Shown in pieces: positions 1 through 32,000 of a stretch of 32,000 bases of DNA. The stretch lies in NCBI GenBank assembly GCA_008080745.1, contig SHMX01000004.1, forward strand, positions 270,001 through 302,000, written 5' to 3'. The notes under the pieces are model-generated. The model searched no databases. It was not told the origin of the DNA and was given only the letters and a program-made list of their open reading frames with translations. Position 1 is the first letter of the stretch. The number at the start of each line of letters is the position of its first letter. This stretch comes from Candidatus Thorarchaeota archaeon. Its GTDB lineage: Archaea; Asgardarchaeota; Thorarchaeia; Thorarchaeales; Thorarchaeaceae. The position numbers were made by a program, and so were the translations under genes.

Positions 1-1908
1 AAGATATTGTTCATTGAGAGCTGAGACCATAGCAGATATGTCCTTTTTTGATCTCCCTGCAATTACAACCTCAAATGTATCGCTAATTAGAAATGATAAG
101 GCATTAAGCATCATCGTATACGCTGTTGGATTCTGTAGTATATCAGTTGAAAAGAAGTGAATGATCTCAGATGCTTTGTCCTCTAATTTTGCTTGTCCTA
201 TTAGTCTGGCCAACCTAACTAGATTATAAGAAGCAACGGAATTGCCTGAGGGAATAGCACCATCATATGCATCTTTTTGTCTCGTAAGTAGATCTTCAGC
301 ATGATCTGCAGTAAAGAATAAAGCTCCTTGTTCTTCATCCCAAAAATAGGCTAACATATTTTGAGCAATATCTTTTGCTAATTCAAGATAATCCGGGTTC
401 AGGGAAGCTTGATAGGTCTCCAAGAAACCCCATAATAGAAATGCATAGTCGTCCAGAAATCCAGTAATTGTTATCTCATCGTCTTTCATTCGATGGTAGA
501 GTATATCGTCTGAATACATCTTTTCAGCAATCATATCAGCTGCATTTTCAGCCATCTTGATATATTCGGATTCTCCAAGTACTCTGCCAGCGTAAGCGAG
601 AGCCGCAATCATCAATCCGTTCATATCAGCTAAAATTTTATCATCTGTGAGCGGATGAACTCGTGTTTTTCTCGCTCGAAATAGTTTCTCTCGAATGGTT
701 TCAATGATCTTGCTAAGCTCCTTCTTGTCCATTCCCAGTTTTTTTGCATAAACCTCGATTTTATAGATGAGATGGGGAATATTCATTCCAGTTGGTTCTC
801 TACTGGACTCGTCCAAGAAGTTCCCATTTTCTTTGATGTTAAAAATCTCCTTTGCTATCTGAAATTCCTTGTCCTCTAGAATCTCCTCAATTTCCTTTTG
901 TGCCCAGACATAGAATTTACCCTCTTCACCTTCGCTATCCGCATCTTGCGCAGTATAGAAGAGACCTTCATCACTTGTCATTTCTCGATTCACATAAGTG
1001 ACGATTTCACGAACTGTTTCAGCATATTCTTTCTCACCTGTAATTTGATATGCTTCAGAATATGCGATTATTAGCATAGCTTGATCGTAAATCATTTTCT
1101 CAAAGTGAGGGAGCAACCACTCGCGGTCCGTAGAATATCGATGAAATCCAAATCCTATCTGGTCATAGACACCTCCTTTTCTCATCTCTGTTAGTGTCTT
1201 TTCGACCATTGCCAAGGCGTTTTTTTCTCCGGTTTCTTTCCAGTATCTTAGTAGAAATAATAGATTATGTGGGGATGGAAATTTTGGAGCGATTCCAAAT
1301 CCTCCAAGTTCTGAATCAAATCTTTGGAGTAAAGTATCATACGCTCTTCTGAGAATTGACCTGTCTAGTTCCTCTTTTTCTTTATCTTGGCGGATTGAGA
1401 AGTTCTCTCTGATTTGTTTTGTTACATCCTCTACTTTGTATCGTTGATCTTCCCAGATTTTTTCAATCGCAGGTATCAGCTTTTTCATCCCCATTTGACC
1501 ATACTTGTCTTCTTTAGGGATGTAGGTGGCAGCAAAGAATGGTTCCTTATCAGGTGTCATAATTATAGTTAGTGGCCATCCACCACGACCTGTCATCATC
1601 TGTGCAACCTGCATGTATATCTTATCTATATCTGGTCGTTCCTCTCTATCCACTTTGATATTGATGAAGGTTTCATTCATCATCTTTGCTATTTCTGGGT
1701 CTTCAAAAGATTCGTGTTCGAAAACATGACACCAATGACAAGTACTATACCCTATAGAAAGAAAGATGGGTTTATCCTGTTTTTTTGCTGTTTCAAATGC
1801 CTCATCTGACCAGGGATACCAATCTACTGGATTGTATGCATGTTGTTGGAGGTATGGGCTTTTCTCATCAATCAATCTGTTTGGCTTTTTATCCGACTCT
1901 TTTGCCAC
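1..1908 (-). CDS. Thioredoxin-domain-containing protein, YyaL/SPATA20 (DUF255 + alpha/alpha-barrel) family; 3' end runs off the window
   Basis: Manually translated; absent from the ORF track because there is no stop in the window. GTG start at 1908, then [98 protein letters not shown]. All are hallmark YyaL motifs. The frame reads open to position 1. Confidence 0.92.
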
Positions 1909-26022: not shown

Positions 26023-26058
26023 TCCCGGCTGGGACTACCTCTTTCTTGTTTTTATTTT
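26021..26058 (+). terminator. Hairpin + U-tract between convergent genes
   Basis: agtccc-ggct-gggact (26021-26036) followed by tctttcttgtttttatttt. Confidence 0.5.
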
Positions 26059-27148
26059 ATGGTTTCATCTGAGCCAGAATCTCACGAAGTCTTGGTTCAG
26101 CAAGGATTGCATGTTGTAATTTGCATAGCAATTTTGTAATTTCTGCATAGATAACTTGTCGCTGGGGATCACTACCAGTTTCTGCATTCTGTAATGCTTC
26201 TTCGCAGCGTTGGTTGATTCTTTTTATGAGGCGCTTCTCCAAGTCCGGTCCTCCCCAACCAAATCCATCAAAAGCAGTGTGTGCGTCCAATATTTTTTCC
26301 TGAACATTGAAATCTTCGCCTTTGAGTATTCCTTCAATGCCTGCAAAATATTTAGACACTGCTCTTTCTACTCGTTCCATCTCTGACCCATCAAGATAAT
26401 TTTCTTGAGCTCTTTTCTTCATCAAGTCCTGCAAAAGCCTTGCACCGGGTGCCTCTGTTAGCAACCCTTTAACTATACGTACAACAACTCGAGCAGGTAT
26501 CTCGATTGCATCGCCAATATATGGTGAATTGGATTCGTATCTATGAAGCTCTCGTAGAACTTCTAGCCAGAATGTTGGTAATAATGCATGGCAACGCTTA
26601 GAATATTGTTGTATCATCCGCTGAGTCTGACCAATCAGTCCCCACTCATCATTTTCAACACCTACTTTTTTGTAGGGCTCTTTTGGTTCTGGTGGTTCGG
26701 GAGAAGCCAGTTCTAATAGCGGCTCTAATTTTTCTTGGTCTGTTGTAACACTTGATGCAGCTTTTACAACTTCTTTTGGTATCGGCCGAGATCCTTCGCC
26801 TCCATCAAGGAGATGCAGTATCTCAGCAGTAGGTGTTCCTCTGTCCTCGGCTTTCTTGGCAATCTCTGAGAGTTTGGGTAGAACACTCTCTATCTGAGAA
26901 AGTCGCTTTACCAGCAGACCCACTATATTTTGAGTTGATGGTGGTATCTTTGTTGAGGTTGTTAAATCCTCCAACCAACTTCTTGTTCGAGTAAGCCCCT
27001 GAGTTAGAGAATCAACTCTATCAGGATCAATAGAACCCTCAACCTGAGATGTAATTAGGAAATGAATCAAGGTAGAGTTTAGTGTGGCTATGAGGAGCAT
27101 TCGCTCGATTAAGTCAACATTCCCAATTTCTTCAGTCAAATCACTCAC
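26057..27148 (-). CDS. Hypothetical all-alpha protein, two helical domains with a Pro-rich linker; third gene of the tubulin-like operon
   Basis: 363-aa ORF with a GTG start 3 nt after the tubulin-like stop. Linker LASPEPPEPKEP. Confidence 0.75.
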   Translation of the reverse strand: MSDLTEEIGNVDLIERMLLIATLNSTLIHFLITSQVEGSIDPDRVDSLTQGLTRTRSWLEDLTTSTKIPPSTQNIVGLLVKRLSQIESVLPKLSEIAKKAEDRGTPTAEILHLLDGGEGSRPIPKEVVKAASSVTTDQEKLEPLLELASPEPPEPKEPYKKVGVENDEWGLIGQTQRMIQQYSKRCHALLPTFWLEVLRELHRYESNSPYIGDAIEIPARVVVRIVKGLLTEAPGARLLQDLMKKRAQENYLDGSEMERVERAVSKYFAGIEGILKGEDFNVQEKILDAHTAFDGFGWGGPDLEKRLIKRINQRCEEALQNAETGSDPQRQVIYAEITKLLCKLQHAILAEPRLREILAQMKP

Positions 27149-27151
27149 ACC

Positions 27152-28534
27152 CTATTCCATCGTTTCTCCAGGTGTCATATAATAGCTAAATAGTTCTCTG
27201 AAGTCACTAATGGCACTGACTAGTTCTTTTCTCGTGGTACCTTTGGATCGCATAAACCAACCTTGTTTCAAGGGAGAAGAACCACTGTGAAGATTAACGA
27301 GCTGAGTGGCCTCGTTAATGATTTGAACTAGCTCGGGTATCTTAGGTAGACCAAGTAAGAGCAATAGGTTTGTGGAGGGGTCTTTGTCATAATACTGCAC
27401 ATAACATGGAGTTATTGCTGCTCCCGGTGCAATGAATTTATCCAGTGATTCCTTAAGATGCATTCCATATTCTGCCTTTGAAATATGTCTTGGTCCACTG
27501 AATACATAATATACACTCTCTGCATTTGGTTGATCTCCAACGTCTGCATAGGAGGTTTCTTTGATTGCATAATCCACCATTGCACGAAGCTGTTTAGGCA
27601 TACTTCCTGCATCAGGAATAAGACCGATATCTTGGTAGAGTGCTGGAACAACAACTGGATCAAGTTTTCTAGAGTAATCTGCAAGGTCCGTTGTGGGAAA
27701 CACATCCTTGTTACCTTCGTAGACACCAGGTGATAACATCGCCTCAATCACGTCCAGTGCCAGAGGGTTAACCAATTCAACAAAAGCTTGTTCCGTTCGT
27801 TTATCCATATCTTCCGTTTCATCAAGGGTTGAGGGCACCTTTGTTTCAATCTGATCGATACTTGCAATATCCACATCAAGTTCTCGCTGAAGATAATCAA
27901 CGCTGTCAGATTTTCTTGAATTGAGAATTCTTTTGAGCATAGTACGATTACTAAGCAATATGGTAAGATCTGCACCCCTCTCTTGCAACTGTGCCCGGAG
28001 GAGTTTGGATACCGCCCAAATAGAATTCAATGCCTCACTGGATTGACCCTCGAATGGGAGTACTCCGATTACGTATACAAAGATACGCCTTCCCTCTTCC
28101 TCTTGGAATCTCTGTTTGAGAAGTTCAATGATTGCAGGTGTTCCACCACAACCTGTACCTCCGCCAAGACTAGTAAAGATACAGAATCCAGAAACTCCTT
28201 CAAATCCGAGGTTTCCCAGCTGATCAAAGATAATATCTTTTGACTCCATCATGGCGTTGTATCCATCCATGAACCGGCCACCCACACCAATCTCTGATGC
28301 ACCATATAGCATCGTATTTTCCTTGGGGATACCATATTTTGATCGCACCTTTGTCAAGTCAGCTCGGTCTGTATTCATCAACATGTAGCCTCTAACTCGA
28401 GATGGGAGTTTCTTGTCTCTACTTGTCTGTAGATAAGAGCCTACTATGTTTGAACCACATTCTCCTATGCCGATGGCAAAGACCTCGGCTGCTTTGGTCG
28501 TTTCGTCGCTTTCGCTTCCTCTCATTCTATGCAT
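27152..28534 (-). CDS. Divergent tubulin/FtsZ/CetZ superfamily GTPase
   Basis: T1 IGIGECGSNI, T2 MNTD, T3 GVGG, T4 SLGGGTGCG, T5 GVLPF, T6 NSIW, T7 TTDLADY. FtsZ/CetZ-like C-domain (VFSGP...LLLLGL). AGGGGT RBS. Confidence 0.9.
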   Translation of the reverse strand: MHRMRGSESDETTKAAEVFAIGIGECGSNIVGSYLQTSRDKKLPSRVRGYMLMNTDRADLTKVRSKYGIPKENTMLYGASEIGVGGRFMDGYNAMMESKDIIFDQLGNLGFEGVSGFCIFTSLGGGTGCGGTPAIIELLKQRFQEEEGRRIFVYVIGVLPFEGQSSEALNSIWAVSKLLRAQLQERGADLTILLSNRTMLKRILNSRKSDSVDYLQRELDVDIASIDQIETKVPSTLDETEDMDKRTEQAFVELVNPLALDVIEAMLSPGVYEGNKDVFPTTDLADYSRKLDPVVVPALYQDIGLIPDAGSMPKQLRAMVDYAIKETSYADVGDQPNAESVYYVFSGPRHISKAEYGMHLKESLDKFIAPGAAITPCYVQYYDKDPSTNLLLLLGLPKIPELVQIINEATQLVNLHSGSSPLKQGWFMRSKGTTRKELVSAISDFRELFSYYMTPGETME

Positions 28535-28553
28535 GATCTATAACCCCTTTTGA

Positions 28554-31256
28554 CTATCCGCGTGTTTCTACCATTGCACGAACCAATACTTGTACGGCCC
28601 AGGATAGATACGAGCTAATGTCTTCTCTGCTAAAGGTCTCACGTATCTTCCTCGTAGAATCGTCAATAAACTTACTTCGTTCGTCTGCGCTCGCACTTGC
28701 ACTGAAGCCTGCCATGTATACACGGAGTGATTTATGCCAGTCATCCATCTTTGCAGCTTTTTCTACCCAATCAACTCGCATCTTTGAGAGTTCATTAAAC
28801 CATTCGATGGCATTGTCCAGCGATTTTGCATTCTTGAGTTGTTGCTCAAGTTTGTCCATCTTTTTCAAATCAAAGATAAGCCGACTGAAATCATCGGGAT
28901 GCAACTTGTATACTCTTTCAATAGTTGAGTAGTATTTGCTCTTTGCACGAATATCTTTATCGTGTGCTTCCTTGTCTTTTGCTGCAATACCTTTGATCAC
29001 ATCAAGCATCTCTTCCTGGATGTTTGCCAAGGTCAGACAGACATCCAATGCTTCATTTACATGCTTAGAGCTCTCTGAGAGTTGCGATGGTACTCGGTCC
29101 AATAGAGTTGATAATCGTTGGACAAAGTCTGACATTCCTTGTTCTTCAAAAATTGACACAGCATCCTTGATTTGACGATATGCATCATTTGCTCTGGAAC
29201 GAACTTTCTTGTGAACAGCTTCTGAAGTTGTGAGGTTTTCTAGCTTGTCGAATGCGTCAGCTGCCTCATCTAATTCTTCTGGAGGCGATTCCTTAATCTC
29301 ACTAACGATTCCAATCTCCTTATCCACGTCAACTCCAATGCTTTGAGCTTTCTCAAGCATTCCTAGAAGACCATCTACCTCTTCCTCTAATACTTCAAGT
29401 ATCTTGTCTGTAATCTTGTGTTCATATAATTCAATCATTCTTCGAGCTATTGCAGGTAGGCTGAAGACATTGTCAGCTGCTACACCTACATTATTCAATT
29501 CACTAATAGCTTCTTGAATCTCTCCCGGAATCTCAACTCCTGCACCCATCAGTTTAGCTGCCGCCAGTCGAATCTTCACTTGAAGTCGATATCTCAAGTT
29601 TTCCAGAGCATCTTTTGCTTTGGCTAGAATTGTATCCTTTATTGTTCTCATCTCTGAACGAATCTCGCTGAACTCGTTCATCCCTTGGATACGCAAGGAA
29701 CCTTCTTCCAATTCAACATTGATAGGCATGAAAATTTCTGCATATTGTGGTTTGATTGTCTGAAGATCTTGTACAATTGCATCAATCTCTTGTTGGCAAG
29801 CCTCTCTAAATGTTGCAACACCACTTTCGACAGCTTGTCGAAGATTCTTCAAAGATTCTAGGAGAAAGACGATTCCTCCTTCCAGATCTTCTACCTTTGG
29901 TGCTTTCTTGCTTAGCTGCGCATAATCTAATACACGATCTGCAGAAGTAGCTAATTCGTTGAATCTTGTAATGTAGCTCTTAATCAGATCGGTCACATGT
30001 GTTCGATATTCTTCTTCTCTCTCTGAGGCTTTCAGGTATATCTTGATCATACCATCTATATCTGCAGAAGATAGATTCTTCTTCCATTCAGCAATGTCCT
30101 TTCGAGCTTCAAGAACATCATCAATCCCACAATCATCAGGTTTATCTGTTGCCTTTGCCAACTCCTCTAGTGATTCTTCAATCTCTTGTTTGAGTGAGAT
30201 TCGTACCTGACTTGTCCATTCTACCATTTTTTGATAGGAAGCAAGAAGATTTGCAATATCATTACCTTCCACTCCAACGGTAGGTGCCTCAGGGATAATA
30301 TCTGAGGTTGTGGGGATTCCGCCTGCGACTATTTTTGTTGTTATCTCATGCTTTAGGTTGATAATTTTGTCACGGAGCATATTTCCCATTTGAAGTCTAG
30401 CTGTCTGTAATTGGTTTTCTAGGCTTATCAGCGTGGTAAGATTTGATGCCTTTGAAGCATCACGAGCAAGAATCCTCAGTTTTTGAGTGAAATCCATGGG
30501 GAGATCCAAACCAATTTTAGCAGCAGTTTCAACATATGCTTGTAAAGCTTCAACATCCGTCATGAGTGCTGTCGTAAGCATTCTACCGACTTCATCCTTT
30601 CTTCCATCCAGATACGTTCTTTCAACCTGCAGTTTCTCCATGATTCGAATGAGGTCAGCTAGAGACATATGTGATACATCATCGTTTGAGATAGTGGTAG
30701 TCACTTCTCCTCTATCGATAGTGATGTGTCGTTCATAGGTTTCAACAATTCTTTTGTTCTCATCAAGAAGAGATTTAACCTCACGGGCAAAGTCTTCATG
30801 AAGCGATGTAACCATGCTTGAGAATTTTTTCATAAATTGATAAAGAGCATTAAGATCTTCTGGTTGCCCTGTCCCTACACTGGGTATTGATAGTCCCTTA
30901 AGGGCACTTGCCTCCTTAGGCTTCAGGGTTTGAAGATTTGGTACAATAGACATAATTTTCCTGTGTTCTTTAGTTGAGAGGTCTCCAAAGTCTCGGGTGA
31001 CTCTCATAAAATCTTCTTCAAATTCAGATTGAACCTTTTCAAATTGACCTTCGACTTTTCGTTTTTTTAGAAATCCTGCTTCTTCAACTTCTTGTTCCAA
31101 TTTTGTTAGTGAGGCAAAAACGTCAAAGAGATGACGAACCTGTCTACTAACGTTCTCTTCCAGCGAAGGATTAAGAGAAATCAGTATTCCTTTCAAATCA
31201 GCGAGCTTATCCAGCTCACGCCTCCATGCATGAGTATCCAAATGAGTTTCCTCCAT
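28554..31256 (-). CDS. Large alpha-helical repeat / coiled-coil protein (900 aa, ~65-aa periodicity); first gene of the tubulin-like operon
   Basis: E/K/L/A-rich with no catalytic motif or TM segment. Recurrent helix-break motifs AKIGLDLP, AGGIP, DCGID, GAGVEIP, QSIGVDVD, EQGMSD. Confidence 0.8.
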   Translation of the reverse strand: MEETHLDTHAWRRELDKLADLKGILISLNPSLEENVSRQVRHLFDVFASLTKLEQEVEEAGFLKKRKVEGQFEKVQSEFEEDFMRVTRDFGDLSTKEHRKIMSIVPNLQTLKPKEASALKGLSIPSVGTGQPEDLNALYQFMKKFSSMVTSLHEDFAREVKSLLDENKRIVETYERHITIDRGEVTTTISNDDVSHMSLADLIRIMEKLQVERTYLDGRKDEVGRMLTTALMTDVEALQAYVETAAKIGLDLPMDFTQKLRILARDASKASNLTTLISLENQLQTARLQMGNMLRDKIINLKHEITTKIVAGGIPTTSDIIPEAPTVGVEGNDIANLLASYQKMVEWTSQVRISLKQEIEESLEELAKATDKPDDCGIDDVLEARKDIAEWKKNLSSADIDGMIKIYLKASEREEEYRTHVTDLIKSYITRFNELATSADRVLDYAQLSKKAPKVEDLEGGIVFLLESLKNLRQAVESGVATFREACQQEIDAIVQDLQTIKPQYAEIFMPINVELEEGSLRIQGMNEFSEIRSEMRTIKDTILAKAKDALENLRYRLQVKIRLAAAKLMGAGVEIPGEIQEAISELNNVGVAADNVFSLPAIARRMIELYEHKITDKILEVLEEEVDGLLGMLEKAQSIGVDVDKEIGIVSEIKESPPEELDEAADAFDKLENLTTSEAVHKKVRSRANDAYRQIKDAVSIFEEQGMSDFVQRLSTLLDRVPSQLSESSKHVNEALDVCLTLANIQEEMLDVIKGIAAKDKEAHDKDIRAKSKYYSTIERVYKLHPDDFSRLIFDLKKMDKLEQQLKNAKSLDNAIEWFNELSKMRVDWVEKAAKMDDWHKSLRVYMAGFSASASADERSKFIDDSTRKIRETFSREDISSYLSWAVQVLVRAMVETRG

Positions 31257-31484
31257 TAATAGAGCGGCTATAGATTCATTTCATATCTACTATATTAGTG
31301 TGTTTTGGCTGTTTAGATAAATCTTGGCGCGGTTTTTTGCTCCTTTTTCGAGCTATTTTCGATAAATCGACATATTTTTGCCATGAGAAACAACCTCTTA
31401 ACGGGTAAATGATACATGAGGAAATCCCTTAAGAGATTAAAAGTATCGATTTTGGTAGCGAATGTTTAGTAGGACTGAATAATT

Positions 31485-32000
31485 GTGTCCACAGCGGGAG
31501 GAGCAGCTGAAAGTCTGACTCTAATACATGAAACTGTTGCGGTTCTGGAAATGAATGCAACACATATTGTTCATGATACGAGTTATCTTTACGCTGCCTG
31601 TTCAGATCAGCGGGTGCGAGTAATATCTCGCGAAGATTGGCAGATTAAGGCTGTCTTAGGTGAGACTAGTTCTGAACCATTGTCTGTTCATGTTGACGAT
31701 GAGCACATCTATGCAACTTGTGAGAAACGTGTCTACGTTTGGAAGAAAGAGACCTGGGGCATGCTTGGATGGTTTGAATTGAGCTATCAAGCTGTAACTT
31801 CTACTCTCAGAGGCGATTATCTCTATGTGGGAGCTAAAGAAGGACGACTTGTAGCTATTAAAAAAGACACACATGAAACCTCAAGTTGGCAACTTCACAA
31901 AACCGACATAACGACTTTATGGTCAGATGAAACTCATATTTGCACGGGAACGAAAAAATCCGTGCCAACTGTCTGGTCTCACAAGAAGAATAATCAGCCG
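31485..32000 (+). CDS. WD40-like beta-propeller protein, 5' part only (runs off the window)
   Basis: Manually translated from GTG 31485. Repeats: HDTSYLYAACSDQRVRV, VDDEHIYATCEKRVYVW, GDYLYVGAKEGRLVAI, LHKTDITTLWSDETHICTG...VW. No stop up to 32000. Confidence 0.75.
   Translation, partial: MSTAGGAAESLTLIHETVAVLEMNATHIVHDTSYLYAACSDQRVRVISREDWQIKAVLGETSSEPLSVHVDDEHIYATCEKRVYVWKKETWGMLGWFELSYQAVTSTLRGDYLYVGAKEGRLVAIKKDTHETSSWQLHKTDITTLWSDETHICTGTKKSVPTVWSHKKNNQP

Follow-up and report, generated by a model that had tools for sequence, protein, structure and literature searches.

The closest described relatives of the system considered here are the Asg.Tub proteins, a "novel CetZ-like group in Asgardarchaeota" recognized by Santana-Molina, del Saz-Navarro and Devos (2023, Front Microbiol; PMC9871819). 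This group was built on four sequences, two of Thorarchaeales, one of Heimdall LC_3 and one of B3-JM-08 (the clade accessions are KXH77455.1 and OLS30664.1, both of Thorarchaeales, OLS26264.1 and PWI48967.1); its placement, on a long branch between CetZ and the tubulins, was unstable, its distribution was called sparse, and its genomic surroundings, mostly coiled-coil genes, were judged "unknown and unrelated" (PMC9871819). An Asgard clade described as related to CetZ, which serves as an outgroup in a 2026 preprint (10.64898/2026.02.15.705738), is possibly the same group. In this study we analyzed a three-gene locus (the trio) located in a 32,000-nucleotide (nt) stretch of DNA, referred to below as the window, which spans positions 270,001 to 302,000 of the forward strand of contig SHMX01000004.1 of Candidatus Thorarchaeota archaeon (assembly GCA_008080745.1). 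The trio encodes (i) P0001, a predicted helical protein (gene 1), (ii) P0002, a GTPase assigned by its sequence to Asg.Tub (gene 2), and (iii) P0003, a second, predominantly helical protein according to its predicted structure (gene 3). An earlier reading of the window, made from its letters and open reading frames (ORFs) without database searches (the sequence-only reading), saw here a helical-repeat rod, a divergent tubulin-like GTPase and a helical partner, forming a candidate undescribed archaeal cytoskeletal module. This interpretation is partly supported: the trio is a real, conserved and uncharacterised tubulin-family module. The advance lies in the conserved trio itself, in its partner proteins and in its distribution, the GTPase family having already been named.

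Several other systems invite comparison. CetZ proteins (4b46, 3zid and 4b45) resemble Asg.Tub in being archaeal and additional to FtsZ1/FtsZ2, and they provide the best sequence matches to its N-terminal GTPase domain. Unlike CetZ, Asg.Tub is devoid of the CetZ_C domain, has a C-terminal half in which no relationship is detectable by sequence, and carries an insertion of about 40 amino acids (aa) between helices H6 and H7; the gene neighbourhood of CetZ is also different, and no dedicated adjacent partners have been described for it. The bacterial systems BtubA/B-BtubC and TubZ-TubR-TubY follow the same logic as the trio, combining a divergent tubulin-superfamily GTPase with non-enzymatic partners in one small operon, but the similarity of the GTPases is weak and the partners showed no homology to each other's counterparts. 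The trio resides on the chromosome of Asgard archaea, where it is apparently transmitted by vertical descent, and not on plasmids or phages. AtubA/B and OdinTubulin are, like Asg.Tub, tubulin-superfamily proteins encoded by Asgard archaea, and AtubAB also constitutes an operon, but their similarity to Asg.Tub is only distant and is confined to the N-terminal domain. Moreover, Atub genes occur rarely and lack a conserved context, whereas the trio is widespread in several Asgard classes and its partners are conserved.

Conservation and distribution of the three-gene module

Comparison of approximately 85 related loci (tblastn) showed that gene 1, the GTPase gene and gene 3 are adjacent and arranged in the same order wherever the contig is long enough. 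This order is kept in about 60 loci of Thorarchaeota, and it holds even where the identity of the GTPase is 72, 61, 53 and 42%. Searches with hidden Markov models (HMMs) revealed the adjacent trio in nine more loci of five further GTDB families, the titled ones being Heimdall-/Hodarchaeota or Borrarchaeum, and all three families were also found adjacent in a Sifarchaeum-labelled locus. The trio recurs in genomes labelled as Hodarchaeales/Heimdall-, Borrarchaeum/Sifarchaeum- and Hermod-. Beyond these three genes, the comparison of loci showed no neighbour gene conserved across classes. Recurrence of the three-gene order is far beyond chance. The idea that the three genes belong together, with which the sequence-only reading would stand or fall, was strongly supported across Asgard classes: their homologues co-occur and are adjacent in other genomes.

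The phyletic distribution of the three families was determined on one and the same even sample of 301 Asgard genomes, representing 30 families. The GTPase family, which the Asg.Tub paper knew from four sequences and regarded as sparse, is carried here by 115 of the 301 genomes and recurs with the same two partner families, represented in 118 (gene 1) and 114 (gene 3) genomes. All three are present in the same 9 of the 30 Asgard families and in none of the remaining 21, including families of 68 and 28 genomes. Within the Thorarchaeota family, gene 1, the GTPase and gene 3 occur in 67, 66 and 65 of the 76 genomes, respectively; the corresponding numbers are 16, 15 and 16 of 19 for a second Asgard family, and 20, 19 and 19 of 21 for the Hodarchaeales-labelled family. 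Each of the three families is carried by 32 of the 90 genomes that are at least 90% complete, and the few discordant genomes that were cross-checked are 70-88% complete. The locus is found in almost every Thorarchaeota genome, mostly in a single copy. Such strict co-inheritance, the fixed gene order and spacers of almost no length speak for a joint function of the GTPase and the two helical proteins.

Assignment of the GTPase and conservation of its motifs

The P0002 protein matches the Pfam family PF00091 over residues 17-201 (profile positions 1-187 of 190) with a score of 71.4 bits (cut-off 33, E 1.6e-19), which identifies it, at the level of sequence, as a tubulin/FtsZ-superfamily GTPase. 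Its score against the FtsZ equivalog NCBIfam TIGR00065 (34 bits) lies below the cut-off of 295.2. The Pfam scan yielded PF00091 and a match below the cut-off to PF13809 (Tubulin_2; E 0.0024) only, and CetZ_C (PF21011) was not found. The best sequence matches among solved structures were CetZ proteins (4b46, E 4e-13, and 3zid), aligned over the N-terminal domain alone. Weaker matches (roughly E 1e-4 to 1e-6), again restricted to this domain, were obtained for beta-tubulin, BtubB (E 2.5e-5), OdinTubulin (E 2.6e-5), AtubA (E about 6e-5) and TubZ (E 3e-4).

The two Thorarchaeales sequences of the Asg.Tub supplement, KXH77455.1 and OLS30664.1, share with P0002 the N-terminus and the motifs GIGECGSN, GGGTGCGGTP, SNRTML, NPLALD and TTDLADY. 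Match P0117 (51% identity to P0002 at 97% coverage) is the protein of LC_3, which bears the name "Tubulin-like protein CetZ", and the AB_25 assembly, the source of one Asg.Tub member, is the origin of a related locus (L041) with 88% identity. Shared motifs and identities of this kind place P0002 in the Asg.Tub family. The sequence-only reading had taken the GTPase for a member of an undescribed family, which was not borne out, since the family was named in 2023 with coiled-coil genes noted nearby; no characterised family with an already described operon was found to include it. In the databases, the members of the family are almost all named "hypothetical protein".

The nucleotide-binding motifs were inspected in alignments of 23 plus 12 family members, down to 42% identity. 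Invariant residues include (i) G22, G24, E25, G27 and N29 of the T1 motif GIGECGSN (GIGECG at 22-27), (ii) the whole T4 motif GGGTGCG (124-130), which has a Cys at the S/T position of GGGTG[ST]G, (iii) the T6 Asn, N196, in SNRTML, and (iv) N256, the Asn of the presumed helix H7. Further downstream, the stretch T281-T-D283-L-A-D286-Y (TTDLAD, 281-286), followed by SRKLDP, contains two Asp residues, D283 and D286, that are invariant in the 35 sequences. It resembles NVDFAD of FtsZ, the usual Asn being replaced by Thr. The region also resembles the D-L-T-E-F...L-V-P pattern of alpha-tubulin, and SRKLDP the start of tubulin H8. The T7 synergy loop, which activates hydrolysis in the next subunit, has the motif NxDxx[D/E] (PMC12583498). 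Another stretch, NPLALD, was considered as the T7 loop and rejected, because its acidic position is variable and it fits helix H7, with the conserved Asn256, better.

Across the genera of Thorarchaeota, the GTPases are 79-90% identical, compared with 74-86% for FtsZ of the same genomes, while the partner proteins are approximately 57-69% identical. Within Thorarchaeota the GTPase is conserved as much as FtsZ or more, and is under strong purifying selection. In a maximum-likelihood tree of 29 GTPases the sequences group by taxonomic label, which is consistent with vertical inheritance of the GTPase.

The two partner proteins

The gene 1 product, P0001, is acidic (net charge -38) and contains no hydrophobic segment. 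It was assigned to no Pfam/NCBIfam family, and a profile search found no sequence relative in PDB. The AlphaFold model, composed of 100% helix/loop (predicted local distance difference test, pLDDT, 85; predicted template modelling score, pTM, 0.39), portrays the protein as an elongated chain of helical bundles, for which a low pTM is expected. Fold searches were performed on the whole model. The best Foldseek match in PDB had an E value of 0.03, and VIA-align retrieved only generic three-/four-helix bundles with Z of at most 10.8, which is below the value of about 13 needed for helical proteins. Further matches were rod-like GA/LMP-type bacterial surface proteins and, in AFDB, uncharacterised proteins only; the ESM Atlas held nothing above a template modelling (TM) score of 0.31 except the protein's own cluster. 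Self-comparison detected no internal sequence repeat (best probability 14%). The "helical-repeat rod" of the sequence-only reading is therefore upheld as far as the predicted structure, a chain of helical bundles, is concerned, but not with regard to the repeats. P0001 is an orphan by sequence, and its family is confined to Asgard archaea. Conserved patches of the protein include residues about 550-570 and 838-887.

The gene 3 product, P0003, was modelled with a pLDDT of 80 overall and above 90 in the C-terminal domain; the three predicted regions of the protein are listed in Table 1. Alignment showed that its invariant residues cluster in the loop F-D-G-F-G-W-G-G-P-x-L-E-K-R, with an F..G/E.R core. 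The protein has no Pfam family, and a profile search of PDB sequences gave nothing meaningful. The fold search with the whole model also found no match in PDB (Foldseek best E 0.56; VIA-align generic three-/four-helix bundles), nothing above TM 0.31 in the ESM Atlas and only uncharacterised proteins in AFDB. An exhaustive HMM search of 1.84 billion proteins identified relatives in 47 cluster representatives, all with E values of at most 1e-10. This makes it a small family with sharp bounds, apparently confined to the trio module.

In the AFDB search with the whole model, the C-terminal domain of P0003 (residues about 169-360) matches, with a probability of 1.00, the last ~200 residues of U1PAW8, an uncharacterised protein of 1096 aa in AFDB, and it also aligns to residues 279-459 of the 461-aa A0A2H9NDX8 from the same database. 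Judging from these model-based matches, the domain may occur in other architectures too.

In fold searches, neither partner specifically resembles EzrA, BtubC, TubR or TubY. A transmembrane or membrane-binding segment was predicted in none of the three proteins. Complex prediction for P0002 with P0003 (interaction prediction scores from aligned errors, ipSAE, of 0.00 and 0.02; mark 0.32) is evidence neither for nor against binding.

Genetic organization and genomic context of the locus

The coordinates of the features distinguished in the locus and in related loci are collected in Table 1. As the sequence-only reading had described, the three genes are co-oriented on the minus strand with the two short spacers listed there, which the ORF coordinates and the spacer sequences confirm; likewise, the description of a tight, self-contained three-gene unit around a divergent tubulin-superfamily GTPase agrees with the spacers, the flanking divergent region, and the convergent ORF with its hairpin. 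Judging from this arrangement, the genes are probably translationally coupled and transcribed together as one operon. The starts of two of them are ambiguous: the majority of orthologues of gene 1 use a TTG at codon 6, and the majority of orthologues of gene 3 a TTG located 4 codons inward, which gives a spacer of 12 nt. In some relatives, the stop codon of gene 2 directly abuts an ATG of gene 3. Within the intergenic region upstream of the operon, a TATA-like sequence, CTAATATAG, lies approximately 35-43 nt 5' of the gene 1 ATG.

Table 1. Features of the trio locus in the window (nucleotide positions), predicted regions of P0003 (residues) and variant loci of Hodarchaeales.
Feature	Position	Strand	Basis or remarks
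Gene 1, P0001, 900 aa, ATG start	28554-31256	minus	ORF call and translation
Gene 2, P0002 (GTPase), 460 aa, ATG start	27152-28534	minus	ORF call and translation
Gene 3, P0003, 363 aa, GTG start	26057-27148	minus	ORF call and translation
Spacer between genes 1 and 2, 19 nt	28535-28553	minus	TAG, TCAAAAGGGGTTATAGATC, ATG; purine-rich AAGGGG 5' of ATG
Spacer between genes 2 and 3, 3 nt	27149-27151	minus	TAG GGT GTG
Divergent intergenic region, 228 nt, presumed operon promoter	31257-31484		Sequence
GC-rich hairpin GTCCC-GGCT-GGGAC, possible bidirectional terminator	26024-26037		Sequence
Convergent ORF, 117 aa	25669-26022	plus	Ends 34 nt from the operon stop
Divergent gene	31485-32000	plus	Runs off the window
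CoA-binding/succinyl-CoA-ligase-like protein, 468 aa	24137-25543	minus	ADP-forming acyl-CoA synthetase type
Counterpart of the 468-aa gene in a Borrarchaeum locus	L091:11441-12862		Directly after gene 3
P0003, N-terminal three-helix bundle	about 10-103		Model
P0003, disordered Pro/Glu-rich linker	115-151		Model
P0003, C-terminal helical domain, confidently folded	about 160-360		Model
Second Hodarchaeales paralogue	L157:1554-6314 (CP070695.1, about 2.89 Mb)		Also L152, L158, L161, L166 and L169
Extra Hodarchaeales gene, 1202 aa	L170:3355-6963 (NJBF01000007, B3_Heim)
Extra Hodarchaeales gene, 773 aa	L171:9069-11390 (YT2_065)		Further genes, several in number, lie in between as well

The host belongs to the Thorarchaeota; an Asgard host had been raised as a possibility in the sequence-only reading. 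Its assembly (3.16 Mb) is 98% complete. Two canonical FtsZ genes and SepF are present in the same genome, all on another contig (contig C2 for SepF), and the other scanned genes of the window serve housekeeping metabolism: they include genes of purine biosynthesis and for GMP synthase, one for a deacetylase and one that resembles ADP-forming acyl-CoA synthetases. These housekeeping surroundings, and the location of both FtsZ genes and SepF elsewhere in the genome, indicate that the trio is located on the chromosome and supplements the division machinery. In neither P0001 nor P0003 did the Pfam scan detect a TubR-like, helix-turn-helix (HTH) or DNA-binding family. Together with the position of SepF and the metabolic character of the scanned window genes, this agrees with the earlier remark that the usual FtsZ neighbours and TubZ-TubR genes are absent from the window.

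Several observations concern the flanking genes. The divergent gene, which shares the 228-nt intergenic region with the operon, shows weak WD40/beta-propeller matches and is not among the neighbours conserved across the compared loci. The product of the convergent ORF has an Asp/Glu-rich tail and no Pfam family; the ORF recurs at the same position (80% conserved within the genus, 35-39% at a few further loci of Thorarchaeota) and is not part of the phylum-wide module. In Thorarchaeota the gene of the 468-aa protein is found downstream of the trio, and in a Borrarchaeum locus it recurs as the gene directly following gene 3; it probably belongs to unrelated metabolism. The nearest related contig in the public genome collection is 97% identical, and the listed sequencing runs that contain the stretch comprise no RNA run and only two DNA runs, both of one marine-sediment study and perhaps its own source.

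Variants of the module in Hodarchaeales

Genomes labelled as Hodarchaeales carry a second copy of the GTPase, which in the maximum-likelihood tree is placed as a fast-evolving duplication within the Heimdall/Hodarchaeales branch (support 100/98, stem length 1.14). At the loci of this paralogue, a gene-1 homologue (about 1140 aa) is located directly upstream of the GTPase gene (about 441-448 aa). A 311-aa ORF found upstream was considered as a displaced gene 3 and rejected, as it is not homologous to gene 3.

In a sub-lineage of Hodarchaeales, an extra large gene is inserted directly upstream of the GTPase gene, between it and the gene-1 homologue. Its two representatives (1202 and 773 aa) encode proteins that are 61% identical to each other, have no Pfam family and are unrelated to gene 1.

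Two candidate gene fusions were also rejected. The apparent fusion of the GTPase with a partner gene in locus L055 is interrupted by a TAG stop directly before the ATG, and in the "1596-aa open frame" (G187:C79:41123-42460/L169) the gene-1 homologue is separated from the GTPase by a TAA stop. A search aimed at longer, fused relatives yielded none, a null result of little weight.

Discussion

The reading that we favour, and regard as somewhat probable, is that the trio encodes a cytoplasmic tubulin-family filament system, in which P0001 acts as a scaffold or cross-linker and P0003 as a two-domain adaptor or regulator. Asg.Tub would bind GTP via the canonical T1-T6 loops and would assemble head-to-tail into protofilaments. 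As happens in FtsZ, CetZ and tubulin, the T7-like residues D283 and D286 would complete the catalytic site of the adjacent subunit, with hydrolysis presumably taking place in trans. P0001 and P0003 would be dedicated partners that scaffold, cross-link, position or regulate the polymer in the cytoplasm. For the GTPase itself, the intact nucleotide pocket, the invariant T7-like acidic pair and the FtsZ-level conservation argue for a GTP-hydrolysing, self-associating member of the tubulin family. The sequence-only reading also had the partners act as bundlers, anchors or regulators and linked them to microtubule-associated proteins; these roles, and any such link, remain conjecture.

Several points weigh against a filament of this kind. 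Residues 190-460 of P0002, searched against PDB, have no sequence match to any solved tubulin-family protein, and the hhalign comparison of the P0002 family with FtsZ of the same genome covers the N-terminal domain only, stopping at about residue 200. The protein carries an acidic insertion of about 40 aa (208-248) between H6 and H7, and TTDLAD is a candidate T7 loop, read as such by motif resemblance, with Thr in place of the canonical Asn. In the second Hodarchaeales paralogue no homologue of gene 3 is present, a convergent gene being found instead, which means that gene 3 is not obligatory for every member, and a few Hodarchaeales have gene 1 and the GTPase gene separated by other genes. 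Finally, the searchable literature contains no description of the partners or of the operon, and no experiment on any member of the family.

Some of these features would suit a non-filamentous complex, in which the GTPase is a GTP-regulated switch or cap in a stoichiometric assembly with the two helical proteins, by a logic (not a homology) like that of gamma-tubulin with its gamma-tubulin complex protein (GCP) scaffold or of tubulin with its folding cofactors. The very tight co-inheritance with two large helical proteins is compatible with such an assembly, the divergent C-terminal half and the H6-H7 insertion could alter longitudinal contacts, and very high conservation of the GTPase also fits many fixed protein-protein interfaces. 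We nevertheless consider this complex unlikely, as the invariance of the T7-like acidic pair is best understood if the pair completes the active site of another subunit; the fact that no GCP/GRIP or cofactor fold was matched by P0001 among the matches listed points weakly in the same direction.

A CetZ-like filament involved in cell shape or in the envelope, with partners linking it to the surface or motility machinery, would be a specific version of the favoured filament system. It is suggested by the closest solved sequences, which are those of CetZ (4b46, E 4e-13, and 3zid), by the language-model neighbours of the GTPase, which are CetZ clusters, and by the grouping of Asg.Tub as "CetZ-like" in the literature (PMC9871819). 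However, PF21011 is not matched, the sequence of the C-terminal half shows no relationship, CetZ genes have other neighbourhoods in the published descriptions, and no membrane-binding segment is evident in the three proteins, which makes this version quite unlikely.

A DNA segregation system of the TubZRC/PhuZ type, belonging to a plasmid, a virus or an integrated element, seems most implausible. Such systems likewise combine a divergent tubulin with adaptors in a small operon, and P0002 shows the weak, sub-threshold match to PF13809 (E 0.0024) and the match to TubZ (E 3e-4), but the locus is chromosomal, mostly single-copy and near-universal in Thorarchaeota, and is situated beside purine-biosynthesis and other housekeeping genes. 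In addition, the Pfam scan found no HTH or DNA-binding family in the partners (no search was made for centromere repeats), and the GTPase tree is congruent with taxonomy, neither patchy nor mobile-looking. It is equally hard to believe that the genes are adjacent merely for the sake of co-regulation, with each protein acting separately: the three families share one phyletic pattern in the 30 families sampled, no other neighbour is conserved, and even where identity falls to 42% for the GTPase and to about 20% for gene 1, the order stays fixed and the spacers near zero.

More speculatively than for the cytoplasmic filament system as such, the trio may be an ancestral Asgard cytomotive filament system with structurally novel associated proteins, which would predate the split of Thorarchaeia, Sifarchaeia/Borrarchaeaceae and Heimdallarchaeia/Hodarchaeales and would have been duplicated in Hodarchaeales; we put this forward tentatively, as a conceivable history that is on balance doubtful. 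If true, it would represent a second tubulin-family cytoskeleton of Asgard archaea and a separate instance in which filament-associated proteins evolved in the lineage leading to eukaryotes. The trio is present in approximately 38% of the sampled Asgard genomes, including those of Hodarchaeales, which is a far wider spread than that of the rare AtubAB microtubules. If filaments are formed, the module would add a new branch to the tubulin-superfamily cytoskeleton, together with two new families of filament-associated proteins. Three soluble proteins encoded by one operon constitute a tractable system, which, if this reading is true, would make it possible to test directly how, close to the origin of eukaryotes, filaments and their partners came to form such systems.

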